This document shows, one piece after another, positions 55,031-61,074 of a stretch of DNA of 64,000 nt. The notes under the pieces were generated by a model that worked only from the letters and a program-made list of their open reading frames with translations, was not told the DNA's origin and ran no database searches. Every line of letters starts with the position of its first letter. Position 1 is the stretch's first letter. Both the position numbers and the translations under genes were made by a program. Origin of the DNA: Dehalococcoidia bacterium (GTDB lineage: Bacteria; Chloroflexota; Dehalococcoidia; Lucifugimonadales; UBA1127); NCBI GenBank assembly GCA_965249315.1, contig OZ252225.1, positions 1,255,973-1,319,972 of the forward strand, read 5' to 3'.

Positions 55031-55590
55031 TACCGCACGACCATTTCCACGGACGCGCAGCCGGACAGCACGCTCTCGAGTGCGTCCGCCTCGGCGCGGT
55101 CGATGGTGAGGGCGTACTTCTGGCGCACCTGGACGACGCGGTCTGCGAACCAGCACCTGTTCTGCTGCGGCAACCACTCCGCCGCGTCGTAGGCCCGCTT
55201 CTGCTCCCGGTTGACCTGCGGGGCCGCCAGCGTGAGGTTGAGGACGTCGGAGACAAAGCGAGCGCGAGTCTCGTCGCTGGCGGCGCAGAGGCCGCTGTCG
55301 TGGGCCTCGGAGCGGGCGACGATGTGCTCGATGTCCGTCTGCCGCATGTTCGAGAACCGGCGGCCCGTGTACGGCCCGTAGATGACGCCGCCCATGCCTG
55401 CGACGATGCGAGGCTCGACGGACTGGGGGTAGGAGTAGTCGTCGGAGTCGTAGGGGGAGCAGCGGTCTTCGTCGGCGACGGTCAGGCCGCGCCAGGTGGC
55501 TGCGGGAGCGGGGCCATCTTCGTCTGGCGGCGCGGTGCAGGCGGCCGTCCATGCGAGAGCACCCAGGACAAGGACGAACAGCAGTCTCAC
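55030..55590 (-). CDS. secreted lipoprotein, HNH-type (DUF1524-like) nuclease
   Basis: Lipobox TAAC, YGPYTG, TDIEHIVARSEAHDSG, NLTLAAPQVNREQK, DAAEWLP. Confidence 0.75.
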   Translation of the reverse strand: MRLLFVLVLGALAWTAACTAPPDEDGPAPAATWRGLTVADEDRCSPYDSDDYSYPQSVEPRIVAGMGGVIYGPYTGRRFSNMRQTDIEHIVARSEAHDSGLCAASDETRARFVSDVLNLTLAAPQVNREQKRAYDAAEWLPQQNRCWFADRVVQVRQKYALTIDRAEADALESVLSGCASVEMVVR

Positions 55591-55635: not shown

Positions 55636-55800
55636 TTGGGTGGGCCCACCCGGCGGCAGTGCCGCTCTTGCTGGGGTGTCGAGTCGCGGCGGAGTGTGGT
55701 CCTTCGAGAGACGGTGGTTGTCTTCTGGAGGCGCGGCCCCCAGACCCCCGCGCCCTCACCCGCCCGCTGTGCGGCGGCCTCTCCCCCAGGAGAGGCGGAT
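55636..55800 (+). repeat. intergenic palindromic mosaic repeat
   Basis: TTGGGTGGGCCCACCC, GCGGCAGTGCCGC, TGGTCCTTCGA, CGGCCCCCAGACCCCCGCGCCCTCACCC, GCCTCTCCCCCAGGAGAGGC. Confidence 0.82.
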
Positions 55801-55850
55801 GCGCACTGGGTGACCGGAAGGGGGAGGGGGCCTGCAGGGGACAATCGTAG

Positions 55851-55927
55851 TGGCGACCCGGAGGGGATTCGAACCCCCGATCTCCGCCTTGACAGGGCGG
55901 TATGTTAGGCCACTACACCACCGGGCC
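55851..55927 (-). tRNA. tRNA-Asp (GTC)
   Basis: Acceptor stem GGCCCGG/CCGGGTC, anticodon arm CCGCC-CTGTCAA-GGCGG, T-loop GGTTCGAATCC, encoded CCA end. Confidence 0.97.
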
Positions 55928-56000
55928 GCGTGTCTCCGTCGAACGGTCTGACGCCGTGGCGCTCAGACCTGGACGTGTCGTCTTGTGAATCGAGCGCCGG

Positions 56001-56708
56001 TCACCTGCCGGCGTCGAGCTGCTCCTTCTGCCATGCGTAGTCGACCTGGCCCTCGTAGAACCGGTCGGGGTTTTCCACCGCCCATATCTGCTTACGTATG
56101 ACGTAGTTGTCCGGTTGCACGGCGACCCCGCGCCGCCACGCCGCTACGGCCTCGTCCACCCTGCCCTGCCGGTACAGGCCCAGCCCTTCCCGGTAGTGCT
56201 CCAGCGCCTCGCCTGCGACGTCGTCTGCGCCCCCCGTCGCCGCGCCGTCGACGGAGGCGCCGGCGGCCCAGCTTTCGGCGGCCTGCGCGTACTCGGGTTT
56301 ACGGATGTCGAAGCCGCCCCGCTTGATGTACCGGACGACCCCGTCAGCGTCGACGAAGACGGTGTTGGGGATGGCCTTGCAGTCGAAGAGCTGGCCGAGG
56401 ACGTTCTCCCCATCGACGACCGTTGGGAAGGTGGCCGCGGCCTTTTCGACGTAGGGACGCGCCTTGTCGGGGCCCTGGGCGTCGACGGCTACGGAGAGGA
56501 CCTCAACGCCCTTCGACTGGTGCCTCTGGTAGTAGTCCTGCCAGACCGGCAGTTGCTCGCGGCAGGCTCACCAGGAGGCCCACATGAAGAGGACAAGCTG
56601 TTTGCCTCGATAGGAATCGAGGGCGACTTCGCCGCCGTCCAAGGACTGCAGTGTGAGTGGGGGGAGCACCCCTCCCACGCCCACGCTCGTTTCGTACTGG
56701 ACCGCCAC
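56001..56708 (-). CDS. predicted selenoprotein: TlpA/ResA-like thioredoxin fold with WASW-U-AC and a C-terminal TPR-like helix pair (235 aa)
   Basis: Manual translation from GTG 56708 gives ...LDSYRGKQLVLFMWASW*ACREQLPVWQ...AIPNTVFVD...NYVIRKQIWAVENPDRFY; the single in-frame TGA (56568-56570) sits at the redox site and is followed by the hairpin CTGCC-GGTCT-GGCAG. Confidence 0.88.
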
Positions 56709-56753
56709 AGCTTCTCTCCGGGGTAGGTTTCTGCGAGGTCGACGACCTCGCGG

Positions 56754-56987
56754 CTAGTAGGCTCAGCCCACGCCGCCGTAGCCGACGGTGACGAGCTCGC
56801 CCTCGATGATGACGGGGGTTATGCGCTCTCCGCCCGTGAGCCGCTCCAGCTCCTCGGTGGCGCCGTCGACGAGTGTGACGTCGATCTGCTTGAAGGGGAT
56901 GCTGTCCTTCTGCAGGTCCGCCAAGGCAGCCTGGGAGTAGGCGCAGTCCGGGTGCGTGTAGATGGTAAGCGTCGTCTCCTGGGTCAC
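56754..56987 (-). CDS. predicted selenoprotein: glutaredoxin-like UXX-star-type protein ending GYGGVG-U-A-Y-stop
   Basis: IYTHPDCAYS...RITPVI; TGA (56763-56765) is followed by GCC TAC TAG and then the hairpin GCGAGGTC-GTC-GACCTCGC. Confidence 0.85.
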
Positions 56988-57171
56988 GGCATCACCTCGT
57001 ACAGGGGCTGAAGTTCCAGTGTACCCGTGCGGGCGGCTCTCGTAAAGGCGGCACTGCCGGCGGCCAGCCGCCCTAGCATGGGCCTACGCCGTCACGCCTG
57101 GTGAGCTGTGGGAGCAGATGGCGTCGAGGTTCCACTGCCTGCGCAGAAACGACGTGACGACTTTGGGGGTG

Positions 57172-57387
57172 CTAGTGCCCCATGTCGATGCGCTTTTCGC
57201 CGGAGAGGTAGGCTTTCGGCTCCTTGGAAAAGGCGACACGGCAGCCGGGCCCGCAGAAGTAGTAGGTGACGCCGTTGTGGTGGTGTGTGCCGCCGGGAGG
57301 TTTGCCGACGTCGACCTGCATGTGGCAGACGGGGTCCTCCGCGCGCTCCTTCTTGCCTCCCAGGACTCCGAGGATCTTGCCTATCAT
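57172..57387 (-). CDS. YHS-domain metal-binding protein
   Basis: EDPVCHMQVD, GVTYYFCGPGCRVAFSKEPKAY; AGGAGG RBS. Confidence 0.9.
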   Translation of the reverse strand: MIGKILGVLGGKKERAEDPVCHMQVDVGKPPGGTHHHNGVTYYFCGPGCRVAFSKEPKAYLSGEKRIDMGH

Positions 57388-57534
57388 GGATGCTCCTCCT
57401 GTGTTCTGTCTCGCTGGAGTTCGTGGCGGGAGTAGGCCAGGGGTTGTGCCGTCGAATCTTAGCATAGGTGGCGCTCCCCAATACACCGAGGCTCCTAAGC
57501 CACGGTCTTGTCTTGACGACCCGGTCCGTGCGGT

Positions 57535-60500
57535 CTAGCCGTTACAGAAGGGAAGGGCCACGTCATCGAAGTCGTGCCCGGGAACGGACCTCAACGCTGC
57601 CGGTATGCAGCCGGCGAGCTGGTTGCCGCGAAGATGCAGGCTGTCCAAGCCGGCAAGGTTGCCCAACTCCGGCGGAATCGGCCCGCTCAACCGGTTTTCA
57701 TATAGGTACAGCTCTTCCAAGTTTGGAAGGTCGCCCAGATCAGGTGGTATCAGCCCGCTCAGCTGGTTACCACCGAGGCTCAGATAGGAGAGTCTTGAGA
57801 GGGCGCCCAGCCATGCCGGTATCTCGCCGGTCAGTTGGTTTCCCCAGAGGACCAAGCGTTCCAAGTTGGCCAGCTTCCCCAGTCCCCCTGGTATCTCTCC
57901 GCTCAACTGGTTCTCATTGAGGTGGAGCTCTTCCAAGTTGGAAAGGTCGCCCAGACCAGGTGGTATCGGCCCGCTCAGCTGGTTCTTGCTAAGGTCCAAG
58001 TAGCCCAGGCCGGAGAACCGGCCCAGCTCCGGCGGTATCGGCCCGCTCAACTGGTTCTTGCTAAGGTCCAAGTAGCCCAGACCGGAGCCCTGCCCCAGCT
58101 CCGGCAGTATCAGTCCGCTCAGCCCGGAGAGCTGCCCCAGCTCCGGCGGTATCAGCCCGCTGAGCTGGTTGCCACCGAGGTTCAGATAGGATAGTCCTGA
58201 GAGGGCGCCCAGCCACGCCGGGATCTCGCCGGTCAACTGGTTCTCCGAGAGGTCCAGGCGCGCCAAGCCGGCGAGCTTCCCCAGCTCCTCCGGTATCTCT
58301 CCGCTCAACTGGTTTCCGCTGAGGTCCAAGTAACCCAGGCCGGAGAGGTTGCCCAGCTCCGGCGGTACGGGCCCGCTCAACTGGTTCCCGCTCAAGTCCA
58401 GTGCGACGACGGAACCTTCACAGTCGGCGATTACCCCGTGCCATTCGTCCAGCGGGGCGTCGCTCAACCAGTTCTCGCTGTTCTCCCACCCAGGGCCGTT
58501 GGTAGCATTGTAGACCGCTACCAATGCGTTTCTTACCTCGCTCGAAGGCGCGGCCCTGGGTGCAGCGGTATAGCCGGCAACCGGTCTTCCGTGAAGACAG
58601 TGGTACAGGAGACGGAACTCATCCTGCTGCGATGGCGGGGTGTTCCTCAGCAACGTCTGGTATATCTTGTCTTCCGTCGTCCTTTCGTAGCTACGGGTCT
58701 CGTACAACTCCCGTAGGGCAAATGATACAACCTCATGCCCCAAGGCATGATGCAGTCCCGCCAGGAAGTGAGTGCCCAGCCAATACGGGCACCGACGCGG
58801 CGTTCCGTCATCACCAATTAGGCTCAACCCGGAATCGGCCCACCCTTGAATATTCGTCACACCGAAGGGATCGCAATCCTCAGCAATCTGCACCTTCAAA
58901 GCCAAGTGGGCCGCCCGGAAGGAGATTTCGCCTCCGGCCGCCTTCAAAGCAGTGTAGTGCGCCACGAAATTCGCCCCTCCTTCAGTTAGCCAAGTCGGAG
59001 TGCGGGTTCCCCAGTATGAGGAGAAGTAGAAGTGTGCCACCTCGTGGTGAACCACAAAGTTGGTCGGTTGCTTGAGGAGCAGGTGAGTCCCATAGTTCAG
59101 ACCCAGACCCCTGAACGAGGACCCGTGGTGTTCGGTTTCCACCAACATGATGACATCGGACTTTGGCCACGGTGTCCCCAGGAGATTCTCCGACTGCTCG
59201 GCGGCGAGGGCCGCCGCGTCCAGCGCGTTTTGCAACCAGAACCCCGACCTTCCGACCGCGAACAGGTCCACCTCGCCGGCCAGGGGAAGAGAAATCGTTT
59301 CCGGCCACACCTGGCCGTTCTGTGCCAGGTCCTCAAAGAGCGCCTCGGAAGGAGCAACACTTCGCAGCGTGACTACCAGCGCCGCCTCCTCTGCGGTCAG
59401 GCCGTCCTGCGCCCAGGGCTGACTCAGGATCCACTCCGCTCGTCCGGGGTAATGCGAGACCCGTCGCAGACTGGACGCCGTGTCCAGCATGAGGCTCCCC
59501 GTCCGGTCCGGAATGGTCGTAACCACGGCGGCTGCTTCCTGCCAGTTGGCGGTCAAGCCAAAGAGATCGGACAGTGCCTGGAGCTCCTCTTCGGTGACAC
59601 CATCCGAGAGCCACGGCGCGGCCACAACTCGCTGAGCAATTGCAGAGTCAATCCGCTCGAAAGCTCGAATGTGACCGTCTGCGAGTCTCTCGTTATCGGT
59701 GAGGCCGTCCTGCACCCACGGCAGCCGCCCCTTGCTAAACGGTGAGACAGTAACGGCCACCCCGTTGGAGCAATTGTTGGTCGTGTTCGTCTCGCCGGAC
59801 GCCGGGTCTACACAGACGCCGTAGTGGTACGTGCCCGGCGCGGACGGCGCCCGCGTGAAGACGGACTCCGCGCTGCTGCCGGACACACTCAGCCTGGAAA
59901 CGTGGTCCCTGCCCACTTCGGCGTCGTCTGCCGTGACGGTGGCGTCGGTTGAGCGATAGTAGCGCAGCGTTGTGGGGCTGGAAGGTCCGTCTCCCCGGTT
60001 CCGTACCACGACGCTCAATGCCAGGTGTTGGTCCGCCATCAGGTCGCTGTCGCTCACCGTTAGCGGGTCCACCTCCAGGTCGGGCGGGGGTGGACGCACG
60101 CGAATGGCGAGGGCAGCGGAGCAGTTGTTGGTTGTGTCGGACTCGCTGGACAGCGGGCCCACGCAGACCCCGTAGTAGTACGTACCCGGCGCGGACGGCG
60201 CCTGCGTGACGAGCGACTCAGCGCTGCTGCCGGATGCATCCAGCCCGGAAATCTGCACCGTACCCAACTCGGGATCATCAGGGGTGATGGTGGAGTCGCT
60301 GGAGCGATGGTAGCTCAATGTCGTGGGACCTGAAGTCCCGTCTCCCTGGTTCCGTACGACGACGTTCAGCGTGAGGGACTGGTCCGCCATTGGGCTGCTG
60401 TCGCTCACCGTTAGCTGGTCCACCAGTAGATCGGACGGCGGTAGCACCACTGTGACGGCTACGGGACCGGAGCAGTTGTTGGTTACGTCGACCTCGCGGG

Positions 60501-61074
60501 GCAACGGCCCCACGCAGACGCCATAGTGGTACGTGCCCGGCGCGAATGGCGCCTGCGTGACGAGCGACTCCGTGCTGGTGGCCGATGGCGTGAGTCCGGA
60601 AATCTGCACCGTGCCCAACTCGGGATCATCGGGAGTGACGTTGGCGTCAGTGGAGCGGTGGTAGCTCAATGTTGTGGGGCTCGAAGGCCCGCCTCCCTGG
60701 TTTCGTACGATGACGTTCAGCATTAGGGATTGGCCTACCGTCGGGCTGCTGTCGCTGACCGTTGGCAGGTCCACCGTTAGGTCGGGCGGGGATGGCGCCG
60801 GGGTCGGTGTGGGCGGCACGGTTGGTATCGGCGTGGCAGTTGCGGTAGGCGAGGAAGCGGGACTGGCAGTCGGTGCGGGAGTGGGCGGGGGAGTCGATAT
60901 CAGGATTGATATCGGCGTCGGCGTGCCGACAGAAGCGAGCGGGGGCGGAGTGGGCTCATCTTCGCATGCTGACAGTAGTGCGGCAACGGCGGCGCAGGCC
61001 GCTACGAACACCGCACAGCGTATCAGGGTGCTCCGTAATTCATGGCGTTCAGAGTAAACCGGCCTGTTTGTCAC
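57535..61074 (-). CDS. large lipoprotein: Pro/Thr linker, three CARDB/Ig-like repeats, zinc metallopeptidase domain, plant-type LRR array
   Basis: Lipobox LSAC; three repeats of PDLxV...VRNQGxG...APxAPGTYxYGVCV...NNCS; HHEVAH...WLTEGGANF; about 11 LDLSxNQLSGxIPxELGxL repeats preceded by ALVAVYNATNGPGW. Confidence 0.92.
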   Translation of the reverse strand: MTNRPVYSERHELRSTLIRCAVFVAACAAVAALLSACEDEPTPPPLASVGTPTPISILISTPPPTPAPTASPASSPTATATPIPTVPPTPTPAPSPPDLTVDLPTVSDSSPTVGQSLMLNVIVRNQGGGPSSPTTLSYHRSTDANVTPDDPELGTVQISGLTPSATSTESLVTQAPFAPGTYHYGVCVGPLPREVDVTNNCSGPVAVTVVLPPSDLLVDQLTVSDSSPMADQSLTLNVVVRNQGDGTSGPTTLSYHRSSDSTITPDDPELGTVQISGLDASGSSAESLVTQAPSAPGTYYYGVCVGPLSSESDTTNNCSAALAIRVRPPPPDLEVDPLTVSDSDLMADQHLALSVVVRNRGDGPSSPTTLRYYRSTDATVTADDAEVGRDHVSRLSVSGSSAESVFTRAPSAPGTYHYGVCVDPASGETNTTNNCSNGVAVTVSPFSKGRLPWVQDGLTDNERLADGHIRAFERIDSAIAQRVVAAPWLSDGVTEEELQALSDLFGLTANWQEAAAVVTTIPDRTGSLMLDTASSLRRVSHYPGRAEWILSQPWAQDGLTAEEAALVVTLRSVAPSEALFEDLAQNGQVWPETISLPLAGEVDLFAVGRSGFWLQNALDAAALAAEQSENLLGTPWPKSDVIMLVETEHHGSSFRGLGLNYGTHLLLKQPTNFVVHHEVAHFYFSSYWGTRTPTWLTEGGANFVAHYTALKAAGGEISFRAAHLALKVQIAEDCDPFGVTNIQGWADSGLSLIGDDGTPRRCPYWLGTHFLAGLHHALGHEVVSFALRELYETRSYERTTEDKIYQTLLRNTPPSQQDEFRLLYHCLHGRPVAGYTAAPRAAPSSEVRNALVAVYNATNGPGWENSENWLSDAPLDEWHGVIADCEGSVVALDLSGNQLSGPVPPELGNLSGLGYLDLSGNQLSGEIPEELGKLAGLARLDLSENQLTGEIPAWLGALSGLSYLNLGGNQLSGLIPPELGQLSGLSGLILPELGQGSGLGYLDLSKNQLSGPIPPELGRFSGLGYLDLSKNQLSGPIPPGLGDLSNLEELHLNENQLSGEIPGGLGKLANLERLVLWGNQLTGEIPAWLGALSRLSYLSLGGNQLSGLIPPDLGDLPNLEELYLYENRLSGPIPPELGNLAGLDSLHLRGNQLAGCIPAALRSVPGHDFDDVALPFCNG

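Follow-up and report, generated by a model that had tools for sequence, protein, structure and literature searches.

A predicted U-x-C thioredoxin-fold selenoprotein hidden in a Dehalococcoidia genome, and its UXX-star neighbour

An unannotated gene with one internal TGA

We analyzed a 64,000-nucleotide (nt) stretch of DNA from a Dehalococcoidia bacterium (contig OZ252225.1, positions 1,255,973 to 1,319,972), hereafter called the window, whose genome consists of a single contig of 2.28 Mb and is approximately 92% complete. On its minus strand, at 56004-56708, lies a gene predicted to encode a thioredoxin-fold selenoprotein with a U-x-C centre, where U is selenocysteine (Sec); a gene of the UXX-star family is found 45 nt upstream on the same strand. 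When TGA is translated as U, the U-x-C frame runs from 56708 to 56004 over 235 sense codons and terminates at a TGA located at 56001-56003. Its sole internal stop is also a TGA, codon 47 (56568-56570), in the context FMWASW-U-A-C-REQLPVW, and the partner Cys of the centre is encoded by codon 49 (TGC, 56562-56564). A first-pass annotation made from the sequence alone had described a 236-codon frame with one internal TGA at codon 47, which agrees with 235 sense codons and a terminal TGA, and had remarked that the gene was absent from the list of open reading frames (ORFs). The gene is indeed missing from that list because translation table 11 splits the frame into two fragments, 56568-56708 (46 amino acids) and 56001-56159 (52 amino acids), the only pieces that this table yields. 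The translation with TGA as U is matched by orthologues that are 32-62% identical and share the same architecture. The gene is genuine but unannotated.

The start codon is a GTG at 56706-56708, and a Shine-Dalgarno-like GGAGAG, read from the sequence at 56714-56719, lies 5 nt 5' of it. The frame extends for 15 further codons 5' of this GTG, none of which is a start codon. An ATG replaces the GTG in contigs from two other public runs (C>T at 56708 on the plus strand). Examination of the N-terminus (MAVQYETSVGVGGVLPPL) by eye revealed no hydrophobic segment. Contigs from RNA libraries cover parts of the locus: one, at 56686-56990, runs from the upstream neighbour across the spacer into the U-x-C gene, of which it includes the first 23 nt, and others cover 56233-56468, including one contig at 56233-56430. 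DNA nearly identical to 55950-57000 was found in runs from several studies. Parts of this interval occur in runs X16 and X17, in contigs that are 96-99% alike; both runs are labelled as sponge metatranscriptomes. X20, which bears the same label, holds only a small share of the sequence words of the interval.

Predicted selenocysteine at codon 47

The genome encodes the machinery for Sec insertion, whose presence the first-pass annotation had left to be confirmed. A tRNA-Sec is detected with RF01852 (71.1 bits) and called SeC with anticodon tca by ARAGORN. The selA gene (TIGR00474, 557 bits) is an open frame without internal stops, as is selB (TIGR00475, 314.5 bits, rising to 349 bits when an additional match in that frame is counted), and selD (TIGR00476, 388 bits) contains one in-frame TGA of its own. 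The latter gene is located outside the window (genome G000, contig C1, approximately 122.7-123.6 kb, locus L019), and its TGA stands in the context LANCAG-U-ASKL. Since this UGA is followed by a hairpin, GGACCUG-GGU-CAGGUCC, SelD itself appears to be a selenoprotein in this organism.

The TGA of the U-x-C gene is retained throughout its relatives. The U-x-C family is widespread, as orthologues were found in 20 of the 41 searched genomes of the window's order (E <= 1.5e-42) and on many marine metagenome contigs; each of the 20 genomic orthologues contains a single in-frame TGA. In a phylum-level sample, matches were obtained in 20 of 401 genomes (E <= 1e-30), again with TGA in all 20. Alignment revealed a TGA codon opposite U47 in all 47 genome loci and in each of the 27 metagenome loci whose sequence extends over the site (one more, the 28th, stops short of it); TGG was found at none of these 74 loci. 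Loci L052-L054, which match the tetratricopeptide repeat (TPR) region only (residues 170-201), were excluded from all counts. The genome loci come from metagenome-assembled genomes (MAGs) of Dehalococcoidia and Chloroflexota, and from one Armatimonadetes MAG.

The orthologues share the motif W-[AG]-S-W-U-x-C-R-x-Q-L-P-[VG]-W, in which W43, S45 and W46 before U47, and C49, R50, Q52, L53 and P54 after it, are invariant. The single residue that separates U from C had been seen in the first pass as replacing the spacing of CxxC, and it proves to be the hallmark of the whole family. The same annotation had singled out U-A-C as a special variant, a view that we abandon because the middle residue differs among orthologues and may be A, G, V, D, R, S, M or E.

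Homologues with Cys in place of Sec were also recovered. An exhaustive search yielded 20 full-length representatives, in which the residue at the site, read by eye from the W-x-x-W motif, is C in 12, S in 5, D in 2 and W in 1. Eleven of the 12 Cys representatives have the one-residue spacing, ten as C-x-C and one (P0156) as C-G-S, and the remaining one has an ordinary CxxC. The C-x-C forms met were CGC, CTC, CYC, CIC, CHC, CRC, CQC, CSC and CEC. P0117, which reads WASWCTC, aligns column for column with the U-x-C protein. Furthermore, C49 occupies a column that is invariant in 34 aligned sequences, opposite the second Cys of CxxC. Altogether, we estimate at roughly 87% the probability that 56004-56708 functions as a gene and encodes a cytoplasmic selenoprotein in which UGA47 is decoded as Sec.

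Selenocysteine insertion sequence (SECIS) elements of bacteria follow known rules: a G stands early in the loop, and the loop lies 16-37 nt from the UGA. The first-pass annotation had proposed such an element about 16 nt past the TGA, and the predicted hairpin, CUGCC-GGUCU-GGCAG, begins at nucleotide 16 after the UGA, at 56538-56552; it can alternatively be drawn as a 6-bp stem with a closing G.U pair and a GUC loop. Its GGUC apex presumably resembles the tip of the E. coli fdhF SECIS, to which the first-pass annotation had likened it. RNAalifold applied to 44 distinct sequences returned exactly the 5-bp stem as consensus, and its outer pair (28-42) is C-G in 31 sequences, U-A in 8 and U-G in 5, and broken in none. 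The stem is thereby kept in all 44 sequences, in support of the earlier proposal.

Codon choice provided a control. The stem is encoded by the codons of L-P-[VG]-W-Q. All 45 distinct genes use CUG or UUG for the Leu, a choice made for 406 of 835 Leu codons (48.6%) elsewhere in the same genes. The Gln codon CAA occurs only opposite UUG (8 of 8, versus none of 32 opposite CUG), while elsewhere 183 of 563 Gln codons are CAA (Fisher p = 6e-6, with the kinship of the sequences left uncorrected). In metagenome loci, CAA is likewise paired with UUG in five cases out of five, and the Val or Gly codon in the loop always starts with G. These alignments indicate that the predicted SECIS is embedded in the coding sequence of a conserved peptide and maintained by the choice of codons. 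Hairpins capped by GUC or GGU also follow the UGAs of selD and of the upstream gene, stem-loops with such caps thus being the pattern in this genome. Another stem, GCCUGCC with GGCAGG.C, was obtained by folding the single sequence and was discarded, as it is not kept in the alignment of orthologues.

Several observations weigh against this interpretation of the gene, and the first concern the hairpin. It is short and weak (-6.7 kcal/mol). The 60 nt that follow the UGA fold, as a single sequence, no better than shuffles (z = +0.27, 111 of 200 shuffles being as good), and their minimum-energy fold uses another pairing. The peptide L-P-[VG]-W-Q largely dictates four of the five stem pairs, which leaves only one pair able to covary. 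Two of 27 metagenome loci (L084 and L097) carry CUA, which introduces an A.C mismatch in the stem. A search of 55800-57000 against Rfam gave nothing significant except a tRNA (tRNA-Asp). The contigs from RNA libraries miss the TGA, with 55950-56232 and 56469-56685 uncovered, and such libraries can hold DNA. Among the 20 representatives, seven lack the first redox residue, having S or D in its place, and five of these seven lack both.

Two further observations of this kind feed distinct alternatives. The orthologue in a sister genome of the same genus (G001, loci L040/L049) keeps the TGA and the UXX-star neighbour, and a frameshift interrupts this copy after approximately residue 125, the remainder matching in a different frame (residues 137-235, 75% identical); the cause is either an error in the assembly or decay of the gene. 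Such a frameshift, together with the splitting of the frame under table 11, would fit a TGA that is a true stop, in a broken gene or between two ORFs, or a sequencing error. Conversely, all 74 loci, drawn from many families and from metagenomes, have TGA at this codon. The protein sequence is conserved both before and after it, and DNA contigs from two other studies span the site with no difference listed there. The true-stop reading, to which we attach a negligible probability, is effectively refuted by this conservation.

The second observation is the presence of W at the site in three database proteins (P0005, P0055 and P0133), as would be seen if TGA were read as Trp or as another standard residue, through an alternative code or near-cognate read-through. 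The first-pass annotation had counted on Cys rather than Trp or another residue at this position in homologues; the Cys representatives described above agree with this expectation, and the three W proteins depart from it. These three are gene calls on metagenomic DNA, two of them, with a listed length, on contigs of approximately 1.1 kb, and metagenome gene callers can apply a code-4 model to contigs of this kind. A metagenome scan with P0005 returned relatives no more than 70% identical to it; all of these have TGA at the site, and TGG was seen in none. Because every relative read at the DNA level has TGA and none has TGG, the W most likely results from a code-4 gene call. Moreover, TGA is an ordinary stop in this genome, where it closes 452 of the 1170 open frames with at least 400 codons and terminates the U-x-C gene as well. 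The open selA and selB frames, the lack of TGG at the 74 loci and the Cys carried by homologues also speak against decoding as Trp, which we consider extremely improbable. We retain Sec as the most probable residue at codon 47.

A ResA-like domain and a C-terminal module

The N-terminal part of the U-x-C protein, residues ~11-150 (56259-56678), is a thioredoxin-fold domain of the ResA/DsbE/TlpA type according to Pfam, Foldseek and VIA-align. Pfam reported AhpC-TSA (PF00578) at 72.2 bits and Redoxin at 63.5 bits. An AlphaFold2 model, built from 34 sequences with Cys in place of Sec, reached a mean predicted local distance difference test score (pLDDT) of 92.8 and a predicted template modelling score (pTM) of 0.90. 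The top Foldseek matches of this model were the ResA structures 1st9 and 1su9 (1st9_B, E 2.3e-11, target template modelling score 0.82). In VIA-align, model residues 8-150 matched the DsbE-like 3gl3_A with Z 19.3 and ResA 2f9s_A with Z 18.8 (root-mean-square deviation 2.1 over 137 residues). The first strand of the model begins at approximately residue 14, and U47 stands directly before the helix at residues 48-66, where proteins of this fold usually carry the attacking residue.

Alignments produced by phmmer against solved ResA/TlpA-type proteins placed U47 opposite the first Cys of CxxC, followed by a one-residue gap, with C49 opposite the second Cys; C49, R50 and P54 face the C, R/K and P of ResA-type proteins. 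The proposal of the first-pass annotation that the TGA sits where TlpA/ResA proteins carry their first Cys is thus substantiated. ResA, TlpA and CcmG (DsbE) have the same fold and the same flanking motif, WxxW-C..C-R/K-x-E/Q-x-P, and the cis-Pro position of the ResA type is retained as the invariant P114. The invariant Gln52 is opposite the second Glu of the motif CREEIP of 3kcm, a position that we take to be that of ResA Glu80. Unlike the C-x-x-C centre of ResA, TlpA and CcmG, the centre here is U-x-C, with a gap in every alignment shown. Two other differences are the membrane anchor or signal peptide of the extracytoplasmic ResA type, neither of which was seen by eye here, and the additional TPR and C-terminal module.

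Among NCBIfam models, the best match was NF041054 (ResA-like WAxxUGC motif-containing protein; E 8e-42), at 143.7 bits against a cut-off of 300. The kinship with ResA-like WAxxUGC selenoproteins suggested in the first pass is borne out by this result. Eight other orthologues scored 110.7-162.3 bits with the same model, and the range is 110-166 bits when three Cys forms are included. The model, WAxxUGC_long, comprises 354 positions and shares the W-A-x-x-U-x-C motif; its own motif is W-A-x-x-U-G-C, the protein studied here has W-A-S-W-U-A-C, and many of the orthologues have U-G-C. The match starts at profile position 84 and protein residue 15, meaning that an N-terminal part of approximately 80 residues is missing here. 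Furthermore, the profile also runs through the C-terminal region of longer relatives (to 323 in L066 and to 331 in L051), and two long relatives, P0127 and P0156, start with signal-like segments as judged by eye, unlike the U-x-C protein. The latter is a short form related to NF041054, without an NCBIfam equivalog model of its own.

Selenoproteins of a similar kind have been listed before. In the portions of the published sources at hand, Table 3 of the Sargasso Sea survey lists one 'Prx-like UXC' sequence (PMC1088965), the Global Ocean Sampling study describes 46 'Prx-like (UGC-containing)' sequences under pfam00578 (PMC2398784), and a review table includes a 'UGC-containing TlpA/Prx-like' family (PMC13188914). 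As presented there, this kind was predicted from marine and environmental sequences and has a PF00578/TlpA-type thioredoxin fold with Sec first and Cys two residues on, as in the protein studied here. We infer from motif and domain that the U-x-C protein belongs to it. The same portions mention neither the TPR/RKQ-W module nor a UXX-star neighbour for the published kind. A full-text literature search for WAxxUGC returned no mention, the BSepDB supplement has no disulfide, thioredoxin, redoxin or TPR entry, and a literature search for selenocysteine in SAR202 gave unrelated papers only. The gene would be no surprise to selenoprotein specialists, because its kind was predicted in 2005-2008. Beyond that prediction, the present analysis adds a short cytoplasmic form without a model, a putative SECIS kept by codon choice within a peptide, and a tandem of hidden selenoprotein genes.

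The name Prx-like raises the question of whether the U-x-C protein is a peroxiredoxin (Prx)-like peroxidase and not a protein disulfide reductase or isomerase. The filing as 'Prx-like (UGC-containing)' (PMC2398784) favours a peroxidase, as do the AhpC-TSA domain, which is the best Pfam match, and the good alignment of Bcp/Prx structures in VIA-align, only slightly below the ResA-type ones (5enu, Z 18.1; 3drn, Z 16.6). Sec is also a good nucleophile towards peroxides. However, the position of U47 opposite the first Cys of the ResA-type CxxC and the match of WASW-U-x-C-R-x-Q-L-P to the ResA/TlpA pattern WxxWCxxCxxExP argue against it. In peroxiredoxins, the peroxidatic Cys or Sec comes second in T/S-x-x-C(U) and is preceded by a conserved Pro, Sec-peroxiredoxins being T-x-x-U with Sec in the second position. 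The segment F-M-W-A-S-W-U-A-C-R has neither this Pro nor T-x-x-U. After NF041054, NCBIfam ranks ResA (73.8 bits against a cut-off of 170), StoA and TlpA, and its thiol peroxidase model is reached only with E 1.4e-4. Prx is listed as TXXU in the accessible part of the Sargasso Sea survey (PMC1088965). We thus regard a peroxidase as unlikely and favour disulfide exchange, as discussed below.

Beyond a low-confidence linker at ~150-165, the model contains a TPR-like helix pair (residues 165-197, 56118-56216) formed by helices 165-180 and 184-197, and then two last helices at 202-212 and 224-232. Pfam matched the pair with TPR_14 at 25.1 bits (cut-off 23.5) and with TPR_2 over residues 168-201 at 26.6 bits (cut-off 27). 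A family-specific C-terminal module, VIRKQIWAVENPDRFY...DYAWQK, occupies residues 203-228 (56025-56102). Seven of its residues, K206, Q207, W209, P214, F217, W226 and Q227, are invariant in the 34 aligned sequences and are carried by the last two helices. The first five lie in the stretch RKQIWAVENPDRFY, which the first-pass annotation had described as an aromatic motif next to a TPR-like helix pair; the Pfam matches and the invariant residues bear out this description.

The fold searches (Foldseek and VIA-align) matched model residues 6-154 only, and no structure among the listed fold matches covers the thioredoxin domain and the C-terminal module together. CnoX/YbbN chaperedoxins, which are presumably similar in build, being cytoplasmic with an N-terminal thioredoxin fold and C-terminal TPRs, provide a lead only: they gave no sequence or fold match among the listed matches (model residues 6-154), and the thioredoxin domain of the U-x-C protein belongs to the ResA/TlpA type.

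The C-terminal module is retained in all seven representatives that lack the first redox residue. In P0124, P0143, P0205, P0226 and P0260, both redox residues are gone (S-x-S or D-x-S) and the RKQ-W...P..F module is kept. Since the module persists in relatives without redox residues, it may serve a non-redox function, and its conservation suggests that it probably binds something in its own right.

Most database relatives are truncated at the N-terminus and start just after the TGA, and query coverage exceeds 90% in only 3 of the best 120. When the truncated relatives bear an NCBI name, it is 'redoxin domain-containing', 'TlpA family' or 'thioredoxin family' protein. As there is no NCBIfam equivalog for the short form, annotation pipelines will go on missing the gene.

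A further TlpA-like frame was noticed outside the window, at approximately 47.3-48.1 kb of contig C1 of G000. It has an in-frame TGA with the classical spacing U-x-x-C (YFFATW-U-PT-C-RAEF). Its N-terminal region is rich in Ala, Thr and Pro and includes a lipobox-like VVACGG, and the TGA is followed by a hairpin. This frame probably encodes an exported UxxC selenoprotein.

The UXX-star neighbour and a possible function

The gene 45 nt upstream is located at 56757-56987 on the minus strand. Its ORF starts at a GTG (56987), comprises 74 codons before a TGA, encodes C-A-Y-S at residues 15-18, and matches Pfam Glutaredoxin with 31.4 bits. The gene is predicted to read past this TGA (56763-56765) as GVG-TGA-GCC-TAC-TAG, where TGA-GCC-TAC-TAG spans 56754-56765, so that the protein would end in U-A-Y at a TAG stop (56754-56756). 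It scored 89.2 bits with NF041212 (Uxx-star family glutaredoxin-like (seleno)protein; cut-off 66), and 99.2-99.7 bits with NF041211 (cut-off 100), the lower value being obtained without the last three residues. The ending G-x-G-TGA-x-[YF]-stop is found in 17 of 17 upstream orthologues. A GxGU motif is given for family 2 of Uxx-star proteins in the accessible part of a review (PMC13188914, citing Haft & Tolstoy 2025), and it matches the G-V-G-U-A-Y-stop ending of the neighbour.

A predicted SECIS hairpin, GCGAGGUC-GUC-GACCUCGC, lies at 56733-56751, 12 nt after this UGA, within the intergenic spacer (-12.8 kcal/mol). Inspection by eye of the 17 orthologues showed a G+C-rich hairpin approximately 12 nt downstream in each, in which the stems differ and the pairing and a GUC/GUU-type loop are kept. 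Hidden like the U-x-C gene, the upstream gene is thus predicted to encode a second selenoprotein, with a covarying SECIS of its own.

A hidden Markov model of these upstream proteins was used to look for the gene elsewhere. In 33 of 75 loci, it precedes the U-x-C gene in the same orientation. The arrangement is seen in 15 of 20 loci of the order-level set, in 4 of 8 of the genome_contigs set (two being duplicates), and in 14 of 28 metagenome loci, the upstream sequence being absent from several of these. Both genes occur in 17 of the 41 relatives, adjacent to each other in 15, and neither occurs in 6. Other counts do not favour a constant association: the UXX-star gene is in the flanks of none of the 19 phylum-level loci, and among the 41 relatives it occurs without the U-x-C gene in 15 and the U-x-C gene without it in 3. 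The 45-nt spacing on one strand and the RNA-library contig that bridges the two genes make a link between the neighbours probable; given their separate occurrence, this link is not obligate.

How the U-x-C protein might work can be outlined from its sequence and model. SelB and Sec-tRNA would decode UGA47 under the guidance of the in-frame hairpin at 56538-56552, and the terminal TGA of the gene, which has no such hairpin, would terminate. U47 would act as the nucleophile that attacks a disulfide or another oxidised sulfur of a client. C49 would then resolve the U47 adduct, forming a small selenenylsulfide ring one residue shorter than that of CxxC. Rings formed by C-x-C with one residue between are strained and more oxidising than CxxC, and the one-residue-spaced U-x-C centre on a ResA fold would imply an unusual redox chemistry. 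The TPR/RKQ-W module may be a platform that holds the client or a partner. We lean towards thiol/selenol-disulfide exchange on a specific cytoplasmic client as the role of the protein.

In the clade where the two genes are adjacent, the UXX-star protein would be a likely redox partner. A more elaborate possibility, which we offer tentatively and consider doubtful, is a dedicated cytoplasmic relay of two selenoproteins, in which the UXX-star protein, with a single active-site Cys (C-x-x-S) and a Sec three residues from its C-terminus, would use its flexible tail as a mobile arm that charges or discharges the strained U-x-C centre while the TPR/RKQ-W module holds the client. A comparable mobile arm is the C-terminal Sec tail of thioredoxin reductase. 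No description of a hand-over from selenium to selenium between proteins encoded side by side was found in the literature searched. The tandem offers a testable two-gene unit for the use of selenium in cytoplasmic thiol chemistry.

An alternative is that the U-x-C centre and the C-terminal Sec of the UXX-star protein together bind a metal or metalloid (Cu, Hg, As or Se) or pass it on, in place of disulfide exchange. Two genes upstream, a YHS-domain ORF (57175-57486, minus strand, 104 codons; Pfam 34.5 bits) may hint at a metal link. It is kept in place in 7 of 47 loci; all seven are close relatives, one duplicate pair included, and this confinement weakens the argument. TlpA serves in the assembly of copper centres, and 4txo and 4txv (TlpA with ScoI and CoxB) are among the fold matches. 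In the available portion of the review, the Sec of UXX-star proteins is described as possibly metal-binding (PMC13188914). However, the U-x-C protein matched no metal-binding family in Pfam or NCBIfam, and a nucleophile at the N-terminus of a helix in a thioredoxin fold is the classical redox arrangement. We hold a metal-related role to be improbable and prefer exchange with a thiol client.

Other genes flank the pair, all on the minus strand. Directly downstream of the U-x-C gene is a tRNA-Asp (GTC) at 55851-55927, and beyond it an ORF at 55033-55590 (186 codons) with a GmrSD_C (HNH-type nuclease) domain at 35.6 bits. On the other side lies an ORF of 1179 codons (57535-61074). Inspection of its entry in the ORF list by eye suggested repeated CARDB-like segments rich in Pro and Thr, an HExxH-like motif (HHEVAH) in the central region, and leucine-rich repeats towards the C-terminus.

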